DNA of 63,677 bases, filler included, from Sluysia triapertura (lineage: Eukaryota): NCBI GenBank assembly GCA_046118255.1. It is 4 parts of 4 records of this genome, joined end to end, with 100 filler letters (N's around TTAATTAATTAA, not from the genome) between each part and the next. Parts side by side here need not be neighbours in the genome. Positions count along the whole stretch, not along the records: positions 1 to 11,614 come from JBJNIA010182790.1; 3 more parts are not named here. One strand, 5' to 3'. The position numbers and the translations under genes are program-made. Shown here in pieces: positions 6,295-9,823 of the stretch (positions are counted from its first letter, which is position 1; each line of letters opens with the position of its first letter). The notes under the pieces were generated by a model that was not told the origin of the DNA, did no database searches, and saw only the letters and a program-made list of their open reading frames with translations.

Positions 6295-7508
6295 GTATGT
6301 TCGATTTTATTTGATAACACGTAATTGGTCAATTAGTCGATTACTACTGCTACTACTGTAGTGGTCAACTTTTATAACTTAAGATTAAAATAAATCTCAC
6401 TAAAAATAACCTTACTGACAGCCATACTCTTTAACTATAAACACTACACATTTTATCTCATAAAATAATAATTCACAATCATAACACTTCACCAACTTAA
6501 AGTCAACAACAAAACAATCTATATCTCAAATATTTCCAACTCAATAAACTACTATATCCAGTCCAAACAATTCATAACATTTACTCACTAAATTCTTCAT
6601 CAAATAAGTCATAATCACAGCATAAACTTCACGAATCATAAACAAAATAACATTCAAACAATCCTAACAATTACTTCAGAAACACAGGTTAACTACACTC
6701 AAACCTTTAGTCAACTACACCAACGCTAAATCATTTCATTATACACTCACCGCAAAATCAACTACACCAATTTAATTACACTTTACATATACATATTTAT
6801 CGTAATAATCACCAGTAACAATATTACACTACACCAAGATTTATTTTGTAATCATCAGTAAAGATTAAGAATAACTTTAACCTTTTAACAAGCATTTAAG
6901 TTCTAATCTAATGCATAGATCTTGTTTTTCAATTTACAAAATTTCAATAAATTTCAATAAAATTACCTTTAACACTTTCCATTTCACTCAACCATAACCT
7001 TTACACATTTTCAAAATAAATTCTAGACAACTTTAAGGATTTTGTTATCTTACACTGTGAAGCAACAACTACAAATCATACATTGTATATACTCAGCCGT
7101 TGTTACTTCACAGTACATTAGTTTTTCTCATTTACATTATTTTTATGTCAGAATATTAAGAGCAGACTAGAAAGATCGTGTAGTTTTTAGTTTAATAAGA
7201 TTCAAAGATTTATGCATTTTTATTATTATTAAAAGTTTTGTAATAATAATAATAACAATGATTTTGTCATTTTTACTAGTGTTATTATTATTACTATTAT
7301 TATTGTCATTATTATTACTAATCTTATTATTATTATCATTATCATTATTATTGTTACCATTAATTTTACCAAAATTTTTAATTATTTTAATAATACAACC
7401 AAAATTGTCGTCACCATCATCAGTAGTGACATTTCATTCATCATTGTCACTTCCATATCACTAATGATGATGATGGCTGTTAATTAAACAAAATCCATCA
7501 CATAAACA

Positions 7509-7558
7509 CCCAATCAGAGTCAAGTTATTCTAATTATGTTAAAAATACTCTGATTGGG
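7509..7558. promoter_or_regulatory. inverted pair of CCAAT boxes (CCCAATCAGAGT / ACTCTGATTGGG)
   Basis: Perfect 12-bp inverted repeat with 26-nt spacer, ~200 bp upstream of the ORF; conserved in copy 2. Confidence 0.6.
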
Positions 7559-7757
7559 CTAACTACATAAGCAATTAGCTTTTAAAGCTAAAAATAGTAG
7601 CAGACACAATTTGATTGGCAGTCACAAAATTAAAACTGAATTTTGTACATGCAATTACTAATGATTATTGGAGATTAAAAATAAAAAGTTTGGCAACATT
7701 ATCACAAATAGATTATTGATTAGCAGGCAAGACAGAATTTAGAAAACAGAGAATTTA

Positions 7758-9300
7758 ATGTCAAAATTGGTTATCATTAGTCTTTTGATGGATTCTCAAC
7801 CTATACCAAATACGAATTATTTGAGTCGTGCTTTTCAAAGTAATTCTGTGTCAGCTTATAGTAATTCAGATTCATATATTGGAAATAATTTTAGTACATC
7901 TAAAACTGGTGCTCATGTACAGTATGTTAATCAACTGACAGTTTCCAACGTTGAAGAGAACTATGTATGCGTTTCTAACCCGTCTGTTGTAGACAACTCT
8001 TCGATTTTAAATTCATCAAATTCATCATCAAATGTACAATTTAGATCAAGCTATCCATTCTATGACAAAATATTAAGTCAACATAAAGTCAATGCTAAAA
8101 ATAAGGATGTGATCAATATAAGCAGTGTTACAAGTAGTCTTGATGATTCTATTCGTATTAGTTCCAATCAGTCGACTGATTCAAAAAAACGAAAATTAAT
8201 ACAACAGCACTCATTGCTATTCATTCATGCGCATGAAAATCCTAGACTTGAGGTATATAAAGATAACCCTATTAGCTATTTGGAGAGACGTAAAGATCAT
8301 TTGTTTAATATAATTTATTCAGATGTTAGTAAAGTGATTAAAGATAGATTTTACAGATGTATAGACCATGCATTTAATGTTATTTATTTAGACACTAATT
8401 AAATGTTTAAAGAACAAATTTAGTAAAGATGCTAATAAATTGGTTAAAGAACAATTTTGTGAATATACTGATGAAATGATTAAGGAACAATTTTATAAAT
8501 ATATTCATGAAATGATTCAAGGACAATTAGTTAAGCATAAAGACTATGTACTTGGTATGACGTTAATGCATAATGACAGAGTTACTACGACACAATCTGA
8601 TGTGTGTAAGGAGACCAACGTATCTCAAATTACTAATGATCCGCAAATATTTCAGTTGGTCCTGATGTTCGATCATCTTGTGAACAACAGAGGTAATGGT
8701 TTTACATTAATTTCTATTTACTACATTTATTATAACATGCATTTATATATTATTTATTATAGCTTTAGAAACCTAACAATTAGTGGAACTGGATCATGCA
8801 ACGAAACGGAGTCTGCAGAAAACTTTGTGAAACTTAATATATTTACCTATGTTATATCTGTGTTAGAAATACAAATTAATAATTACTTGTACCATTTTTC
8901 TATATGTTATTATGATAAATTAGAATTAAAAAACATTTATAATAATTCCCTTATCCTTTATTTTTTTAAAATAGAAGTCGTAAATAAAATAGTACTGAAT
9001 ATAACTAATATTAATGAGATAGATAGTAGACATAATTTCAAAATTCAAAGTCTAAATACTATATGTAACCTAAAGATTATGTATTTGAGAAAATTAGAGT
9101 TAATAAATTCCTTATTGTTCGAAAATAATTTATCTAAATGGACAATTAACTACAATATCACCAGATCTTCTATCTTAGAATATTTTAAACATTATAAACA
9201 ATTGTGTAAGAATACCGTTGATAATAAAATCAAACATAATTTCAAGATAACCATGTCCTTAAAAGATCATGAAAGAATCAGTTTTTTTAATGGAAACTGA
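7758..9300 (+). pseudogene. disrupted long gene of unknown function carried by element copy 1 (ORFs 7758..8402 and 8440..9300)
   Basis: 214-aa and 286-aa ORFs in very AT-rich DNA. Ser/Asn-rich N-terminus followed by a helical-looking region; no recognisable domain. Confidence 0.6.
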
Positions 9301-9823
9301 TGTATAAATTATGTAAAAAATCAAATTTTGAGCCCAGAGTATGCTCAATCTGATTTTAAATCTGATTTTACGAGAATCTTCAGTCAACTTCACTTGTTGC
9401 CAGATTTAAAATAATGCACAAAATTGCAATGAACGAACTAATGACAGTTTTTAATGGTATTTATTATTGTACCATATCACTAAGCACATCTCTTCAAAGT
9501 TTTAACATTAGTAATAATAATCATGGTAAAAACAATAAAGATCTAATTTTTGTAAACAAAAGTATATTTATGAAATAATTTACTATAAGAAAGATGCATC
9601 ACAAACAGATCATAGTTACTTTATTGGTAAAGATTTACAAAGTTTTAAAGGAACATTGAACAAAACTAGATATAACATTAATTATCCAGATTTTAAACGA
9701 ACAAATATGATGAAAAAGTCAAGCGATGTAAAAGTCATCTGTAGTTACAAAGCGAAGATTACCTTTTGTTTTTATTCATTTACAATTATCTGATATATAT
9801 TTTGATGTTAAAATTTACTCGAC

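Follow-up and report, generated by a model that had tools for sequence, protein, structure and literature searches.

Two sites in a stretch of DNA of Sluysia triapertura (63,677 nt including filler, hereafter the window) carry diverged copies of one module of about 1.35 kb, which is non-coding as far as its sequence indicates, and each copy is followed on the same strand by a broken orphan gene. We read the module as the arm at one end of a mobile element, old and abundant, that would be moved by a Gypsy-type DDE integrase or transposase and would combine a CCAAT promoter with subfamily-specific passenger genes; we assign this reading a probability of about 40%. The type of enzyme would follow from a single feature, the TGTNR end of the module. 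The first ~0.8 kb would be a cis-acting arm, with the end motif and its inner inverted copies as putative enzyme-binding sites, and the enzyme's need for this arm would explain why the subfamilies have retained it. The inner block would serve as a CCAAT promoter that drives the passenger gene; this gene would either evolve rapidly or be swapped for another, and it is probably spliced. The enzyme itself may be encoded deeper inside, beyond the contig ends, or be supplied in trans, and many copies would be non-autonomous or would carry genes too diverged to align.

Most mobile elements retain their enzyme gene while the ends drift. Here, the usual pattern was inverted: the non-coding arm and the promoter were conserved (61%), and the genes were unalignable orphans. 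If this were true across the family, it would offer a route for an animal to make and spread orphan genes under one portable promoter. If, instead, a pol or transposase gene were found deeper inside, the family would be ordinary, if unclassified, in an animal that has been sampled poorly; unclassified repeats are common in such animals. A word search of the open literature did not retrieve a description of such an architecture; an entry in a repeat catalogue such as Repbase or Dfam is possible. We consider it unlikely that the module represents a large animal transposon of a new kind, a gene-birth vehicle in which a thousand-copy TG-ended promoter arm is joined to spliced orphan genes that can be exchanged, and whose mobilizing protein may lie outside the known transposase families.

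The window and its host genes

The GC content of the window was 26.5%, and three 100-base N spacers, at 11615, 39283 and 52499, probably join separate contigs. Two host genes were recognized, namely a collagen gene (Pfam), whose Gly-X-Y exons extend to 6294, and a gene of the vitellogenin/apolipoprotein type, whose frame comprises 5,416 codons, and therefore the host is an animal. Copy 1 begins at the 63rd base after the collagen Gly-X-Y exon at 5989..6294 (+), for which the Pfam Collagen match lies on the upstream exon, and it is situated behind the GT donor of that exon. Accordingly, copy 1 is not part of a long segmental duplicate on that side. The initial annotation had placed copy 1 in a collagen intron. 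The position 63 bp behind the exon was verified, but the intron itself was deduced from the donor only, the next collagen exon lying outside the window.

Two copies of a module with a common outer end

The modules of copy 1 (6357-7704, +) and copy 2 (58641-57356, −) could be aligned collinearly, with identity in 749 of 1219 aligned columns (61%). A local alignment with a composition-aware matrix started exactly at 6357/58641, the first base of TGTAGTGG (z 23, 0 of 100 shuffles). A second block of homology extended through an inverted CCCAATCAGAGT pair to 7704/57356 (z 7.5, 0 of 100 shuffles). When 300-nt tiles of copy 1 were compared with copy 2, 4 out of 19 stood out (6350-7549, z 9-13), all of them collinear. 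The remaining 15 tiles, including every gene tile, yielded z values of at most 2.6, and thus no DNA homology was found across the genes. That homology is confined to the module and stops before the genes speaks for the preferred reading. No homology was detected outside the TGTAGTGG end (31 of 100 shuffles were equally good), and a profile search for a third module copy in the window retrieved TAT tracts only.

A start common to both copies, TGTAGTGG[T/C]CAAC, had been reported in the initial annotation, and it was indeed present at 6357 (+) and 58641 (−). These were the sole two matches with at most one mismatch (0.06 expected), and none of 100 shuffles reached two, with a pattern that was itself taken from the finding. 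The collinear anchors were also at their reported places, i.e. an 18-mer at 6836/58188, TATGTCAGAAT at 7144/57897, and TTCAAAGAT at 7201/57851. The outer end of copy 1, TGTAGTGGTCAAC (6357..6369, +), conforms to TGTNR, with which Gypsy LTRs and Ginger TIRs terminate; that of copy 2, TGTAGTGGCCAAC (58629..58641, −), was defined by the motif match and the alignment start. The outer flanks read CTAC before the end of copy 1 and TATG before that of copy 2. Look-alike ends at 59719 (+), 40757 (−) and 48375 (−) were without leader homology and were discarded, the one at 40757 being the head of a tRNA-like repeat.

Anatomy of the module

The module begins with a G-poor arm at 6357..7210 in copy 1 (+; 56 G and 174 C in 854 nt) and at 57840..58641 in copy 2 (−; 52 G and 168 C in 802 nt), the latter being the site of the deepest contig pile-up. 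These arms of ~0.8 kb, which had been described as G-poor, are the most skewed DNA in the window: when 2440 windows of 600 nt were ranked by C-over-G skew, the 14 highest all came from the two leaders. The first 700 nt contain one ATG in copy 1 and three in copy 2, and on the G/T-rich strand of the module the longest open runs in the standard code comprise only 37-40 codons. Longer runs under mitochondrial tables just reflect fewer stops, and a NUMT origin was rejected. Inverted copies of the end motif, ACTACA, end at 6448, 6697, 6719, 6766, 6833 and 7073 in the arm of copy 1 (6 seen versus 0.87 expected, 0 of 2000 shuffles). Copy 2 contains two, which is not above chance (396 of 2000 shuffles); the enrichment in copy 1 only is an observation against the preferred reading.

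The arm is followed by a (TAT)n-like tract (7215..7370, +, in copy 1; 57724..57823, −, in copy 2) and by the inverted CCCAATCAGAGT pair. The pair spans 7509..7558 in copy 1 (7509-7520 and 7547-7558; stem z −5.0, 0 of 200 shuffles) and 57498..57562 in copy 2 (57562-57551 and 57498-57509; stem z −4.3, 0 of 200 shuffles). As the initial annotation had stated, it occurs in both copies; its arms are perfect, and it lies within the second homology block. Both arms are identical between the copies, and the spacer is longer in copy 2. All 24 bases were kept, in surroundings of ~50-57% identity. The pair folds as a strong stem of 12-14 bp and shows no compensatory change between the copies, and therefore twin protein sites and a hairpin are indistinguishable. 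We assume that CCAATCAG within the pair is an NF-Y site and that the pair presumably constitutes twin CCAAT/NF-Y sites. The rest of the promoter-like block comprises 7559..7704 in copy 1 (+), where homology to copy 2 ends, and 57356..57497 in copy 2 (−), as defined by local alignment. Homology thus continues for ~145 bp beyond the pair, and the distance from its end to an ATG is 54 bp in copy 1 and 99 bp in copy 2.

Searches for structured RNA revealed no covarying structure in the first 350 nt of the module and no Rfam match to a tRNA or ribozyme in either module, and folding of the outer end itself was no better than that of shuffles. The modules differ from tRNA-derived SINEs and ribozyme-bearing Penelope elements in having no tRNA head and no hammerhead (Rfam). 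The near-palindromic end, the inner inverted copy, the microsatellite and the hairpin could also belong to a rolling-circle Helentron/HINE-like element with captured genes. [quoted passage not shown] However, the end is TG, the flanks directly before it are CTAC and TATG and not TT or T-rich, the end folds no better than shuffles, homology extends ~145 bp beyond the stem, a long ORF follows the module, and no Rep/helicase match was obtained. A rolling-circle origin is, therefore, very improbable.

Broken orphan genes follow the module

Behind the module of copy 1 lies a broken orphan gene at 7758..9713 (+), with frames at 7758-8402, 8392-9300 and 9411-9713, and behind that of copy 2 one of ~1,100 codons in nine pieces at 53782..57257 (−). 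The longest ORFs comprise 302 and 340 aa, compared with shuffle maxima of 135 and 137 (300 shuffles). The long ORF of the initial annotation is thus above chance, but in reality it consists of several frames broken by shifts and stops. For copy 2, the indels listed at 57171, 55721, 55082 and 55046 coincide with frame switches, and therefore these breaks are probably private to this copy. Among the 40 of 888 differences that were listed, 25 private substitutions of copy 2 were used; 17 change the residue and 8 are silent, which looks like neutral decay. Both copies in the window are probably dead.

Intron-like stretches were found at 8693-8762 (+) within the gene of copy 1, and at 56146..56184 (−; GTAAG...TTTAG, 39 nt) and 54785..54824 (−; GTAAGT...TTTAG, 40 nt) in copy 2. 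The sequences of the latter two suggest mini-introns; 0.08 such stretches were expected and 7 of 2000 shuffles reached two, for a pattern picked after viewing. Host introns in the window are 51 and 72 nt long. All five intron candidates fall within some open frame, so that their splicing is putative, which counts against the preferred reading. Introns on the gene strand, if real, would point to transposition as DNA, except in the case of a retroelement that carries the gene in antisense orientation.

The two proteins had been described as alignable, and this could not be reproduced. The segment quoted in support, EID/EIE...KL, was matched by 316 and 276 of 2000 shuffles (p ~0.14-0.16), and 109 of 1066 windows of an unrelated host lipoprotein scored equally well. 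Comparison of the whole X-joined proteins yielded a weak collinear score with BLOSUM45 (0-4 of 300 shuffles as good) and no signal that counts with BLOSUM62 (17-38 of 300), the p values ranging from 0.01 to 0.13. Judged by these comparisons, the proteins are either unrelated or extremely diverged. The earlier proposal of one large protein of a single family was thus not substantiated, and the conserved part is the non-coding arm.

Alternatively, the module may be a free-standing, high-copy, non-autonomous repeat of the MITE or solo-LTR type, ~0.85-1.35 kb in length. The genes, either orphan host genes or other repeats, would then be neighbours without any relationship, which the module precedes by chance or has been recruited to drive. 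In favour of this, the homology ends ahead of the ATGs, the protein alignments are not significant, and the depths of arm and gene differ at least 30-fold. On the other hand, both of the two copies have a long ORF on the same strand, 54 and 99 bp past the end of homology, the gene of copy 2 is itself repeated, and the proteins show weak collinear similarity with BLOSUM45. In addition, no terminal repeat or target duplication was found at 7560-7704 or 57356-57500. We regard this explanation as unlikely.

Database searches with the orphan proteins

The product of 56161-57180 was compared with near-length proteins (0 of 1051 candidates), those of 8392-9297 and 53785-54615 with longer proteins (0 of 1646 and 0 of 626 candidates, respectively), and that of 54555-55736 with 1.84 billion representatives (0 matches). 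Two ORFs gave no usable match in the Atlas, the orphan ORFs had no match among PDB sequences, and searches of Pfam and PHROGs yielded sub-threshold hits only (best HMA, E 0.009). The regions 55688-56188 and 7743-8399 were compared with the family libraries only. All searches were performed with single decayed copies, which lowers their sensitivity. AlphaFold single-sequence models of the orphan proteins had pLDDT values of 32.4 and 31.1, i.e. no usable fold. No ORF matched a transposase, integrase or RT, no match to Rep/helicase was found in the ORFs, and none to gag/pol in the ORFs or in the scanned flanking frames, although gag-pol genes may be situated outside the contigs. The statement that the element contains no recognizable RT, integrase, DDE or Rep/helicase was, therefore, in agreement with the protein, family and PDB searches, and no known TE protein was matched by the ORFs searched. 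Motifs that resembled vWA (DLVICIDSTQS) and YR (KTVRH) were without library support.

A viral derivation, which had been considered earlier, was not supported by the viral searches: the CCAAT pair and two protein queries had no matches in viral contigs. The 18-mer occurred at six viral loci, none of which aligned past a short stretch near the motif (best E 0.008), and these were attributed to chance. Two patterns searched in metagenome contigs had no matches.

Blank results for 1.84 billion representatives and in three further searches would be understandable if the ~1,100-residue orphan protein were itself the mobilizing enzyme of an undescribed element class, diverged past detection between subfamilies. 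The repetition of the copy 2 gene and the marginal collinear similarity of the proteins would be in line with this. However, an enzyme should be better conserved than a non-coding arm, and the opposite was seen; furthermore, single decayed copies lower the search sensitivity, and the models (pLDDT 31-32) provide no usable fold. An orphan enzyme of this kind thus appears decidedly unlikely.

Comparison with known elements and the second end

From the outer TGTAGTGG end the contigs extend 5.3 kb (copy 1) and 6.0 kb (copy 2) inwards, and both stop at N spacers. Within these stretches no second LTR or TIR was found, as had been noted before: neither contig contains an inverted or direct second copy of the end, nor CA plus a target duplication at a plausible far end. 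A CTACA at 54282, near a drop in contig depth, is without a duplication. Reading of the sequence in either orientation revealed no primer site or purine tract at the inner border, and no CA+TGG at candidate borders. No second end, no enzyme match and the high depth outside the end of copy 2 (see below) stand against the preferred reading.

Polintons/Mavericks have long TIRs that start with AG and encode an integrase and capsids. PolB is a further feature (PMC6431247). Here, the end is TG, no pPolB, integrase or capsid genes were found in the ORFs, and, apart from the TAT tract, the arm showed no homology to a Polinton-like remnant at 44-47 kb.

Two sources describe TGTNR as the end of Ginger1/2 TIRs and Gypsy LTRs (PMC2836005) and TGTTRNR as the LTR end (PMC3601003), and Gypsy-type integrases recognize the TGTNR end on LTRs and on Ginger TIRs (PMC2836005, PMC3601003). 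Ginger1 and Ginger2 resemble the present element in this end, which is TGTAG in both copies, and, according to PMC2836005, they have animal hosts and lengths of 2.6-7 kb, with 1-4 introns in Ginger1 genes. In contrast, the TIRs of Ginger1 are 40-270 bp long and are accompanied by 4-bp CCGG/CCGT duplications, neither of which was found here (PMC2836005), and a Gypsy-like integrase (H2C2, DDE), which is clear in Ginger elements, was not found in the ORFs of the two copies. Paired TIRs of ~40-300 bp were not found inside either contig, and with regard to the 4-bp Ginger duplication (CCGG/CCGT, or an RTATAY target), which could be inspected at the near end only, the outer flanks, CTAC and TATG, differ from CCGG/CCGT. 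The arm of 0.8-1.35 kb also exceeds the TIRs of Ginger1, and both its length and the flanks speak against the preferred reading. The TGTNR end is present, but the DNA at hand yielded no enzyme match, and therefore the element is filed under neither Ginger nor Gypsy.

As the main rival, we consider a giant Gypsy-like LTR, the end of which would be read here from the other strand and would comprise the CCAAT boxes, an AAT/AATAAA-rich region and a G/T-rich U5 terminating in ...CCACTACA. The reverse strand is indeed G/T-rich up to CCACTACA and contains AATAAA motifs, and according to PMC3601003 LTRs end in TG...CA, their poly(A) signal is followed by a GT-rich stretch, and R-U5 is better conserved than U3. 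The arm is far deeper than the gene, which would fit a shared R-U5 or solo LTRs. Giant Gypsy elements with accessory genes exist in planarians (PMC6431247), and Retand elements of plants commonly carry additional ORFs in antisense orientation (PMC11963269). Burro and Retand share with the present element a TG/CA end, extra genes of unknown family, a conserved end with a variable interior and, possibly, a GT-rich U5 on the reverse strand; they differ in having a PBS, PPT, second LTR, gag and pol, none of which was seen here (PMC6431247, PMC11963269). With respect to the TG...CA direct repeats of Gypsy/BEL elements, one end only was present and neither contig contained a second direct copy. In addition, when the interval from the CCAAT boxes to the gene was read in both orientations, it contained neither a purine tract nor a primer site nor a TG start; there was also no gag/pol match nearby, and no target duplication that would fit a solo LTR. 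A giant LTR is thus a possible but rather doubtful explanation.

Shared ends with variable genes inside are also reported for Pack-TIR/Pack-MULE elements (PMC8277862) and cargo Mavericks (10.1101/2022.07.12.499685). The present element differs in that its cargo matches no host parent gene and no Maverick core gene, the promoter is part of the shared arm, and a second TIR was not found.

Abundance of arm and gene

One public run was found to contain the DNA, and no RNA data set was listed as containing it. Contigs of this run were aligned at 80% to 52640-60140, i.e. to copy 2 only. The summed contig depth is not a copy number and indicates orders of magnitude only, and the run is possibly the source of the window and thus not independent. 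Six bins at 52640-54145 gave 17-41, the single-copy depth being about 14-41, and the identical or near-identical contigs among those listed had depths of 13-18. The summed depth was 414-1,270 in twelve bins of the copy 2 gene (54146-57157), 277 at 57158-57408, 7,204-10,682 across the promoter and the TAT tract, part of which was skipped because it is a repeat, and 28,515-45,688 across the arm bins, with values from 265 to 39,233 at single sites within the arm. The gene of copy 2 was repeated in the run down to ~54150-54260, with single-copy depth below. Because its frames continue for ~400 bp past this drop, the drop may not be the end of the element.

The bin directly outside the end of copy 2 (58664-58914) had a depth of 31,405, and the flank further out had 340-770. 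An adjoining repeat would account for this depth. No sites at which many contigs start or stop were present among those listed, and together with the high outside depth this means that the run does not confirm the boundary. Of the sharp boundary that had been proposed, the exact start of the alignment at 6357/58641 was thus substantiated, but the contig depth of the run did not corroborate it for copy 2. The wider proposal, in which a promoter next to an unknown gene is dispersed by a mobile unit with a TG end, is supported by the sharp shared end, the collagen-intron position, the deep pile-up and the lack of a recognizable enzyme; the single protein family is not part of what is supported. 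The module probably belongs to a large dispersed family, and by order of magnitude we infer tens of copy-2-like genes and about a thousand arms. In a comparison by eye, loose contig ends at 58110/58111 resembled copy 1 at a site where copy 2 has a deletion; intermediates therefore exist, which ties both copies to one family.

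Sequences surrounding the two copies

Outside the end of copy 2, the minus-strand copy of the TG-ended non-coding module, the summed contig depth of one public run, which conveys an order of magnitude and no copy number, was 31,405 immediately adjoining the end and 340-770 farther out (58664-60140). This deep DNA probably represents other repeats, and copy 2 may have been inserted into them. At 59719 (+), a TGTGGTGGCCAGC motif carries a tail rich in C, but no homology to the leader, the G-poor arm directly inside the outer end of each copy, was found for it.

Within the broken orphan gene of copy 1, three tandem units of 36-37 bp each (8390-8494, +) encode a 12-residue repeat with KEQF. 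Directly behind this gene lies one of the ends that we take to resemble Tc2/pogo-type TIRs (9887-9924, 11894-11931, and 13595-13610). A continuation of the collagen gene beyond 6294 was not found in the window.

Other repeats and host genes

A dispersed repeat family (869-939, -; 15239-15296, +), likely of the SINE type, contains a tRNA-like part preceded by an AT-rich lead common to its members, and related heads were located near 13010, 14290, 15450, and 40760. A further short dispersed repeat (61012-61279, 61812-62064, and near 32590 and 35800) included two copies that were 74% identical. Decayed frames at 46200-47100 (-) resemble, judging from their motifs, a Polinton/Maverick protease and capsid, and a Pfam search of these frames yielded no match. 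Grouped with these frames are CCAATCAGAG, located at 44250, and a tract of (AAT)n that spans 43960-44034.

The window is interrupted at 11615, 39283, and 52499 by three spacers of 100 bases, identical to one another (N44-TTAATTAATTAA-N44), and the parts that a spacer separates need not be genomic neighbors. The vitellogenin/apolipoprotein-type host gene has a frame of 5,416 codons without interruption (16227-32477, +), which is a single exon of unusually great length.
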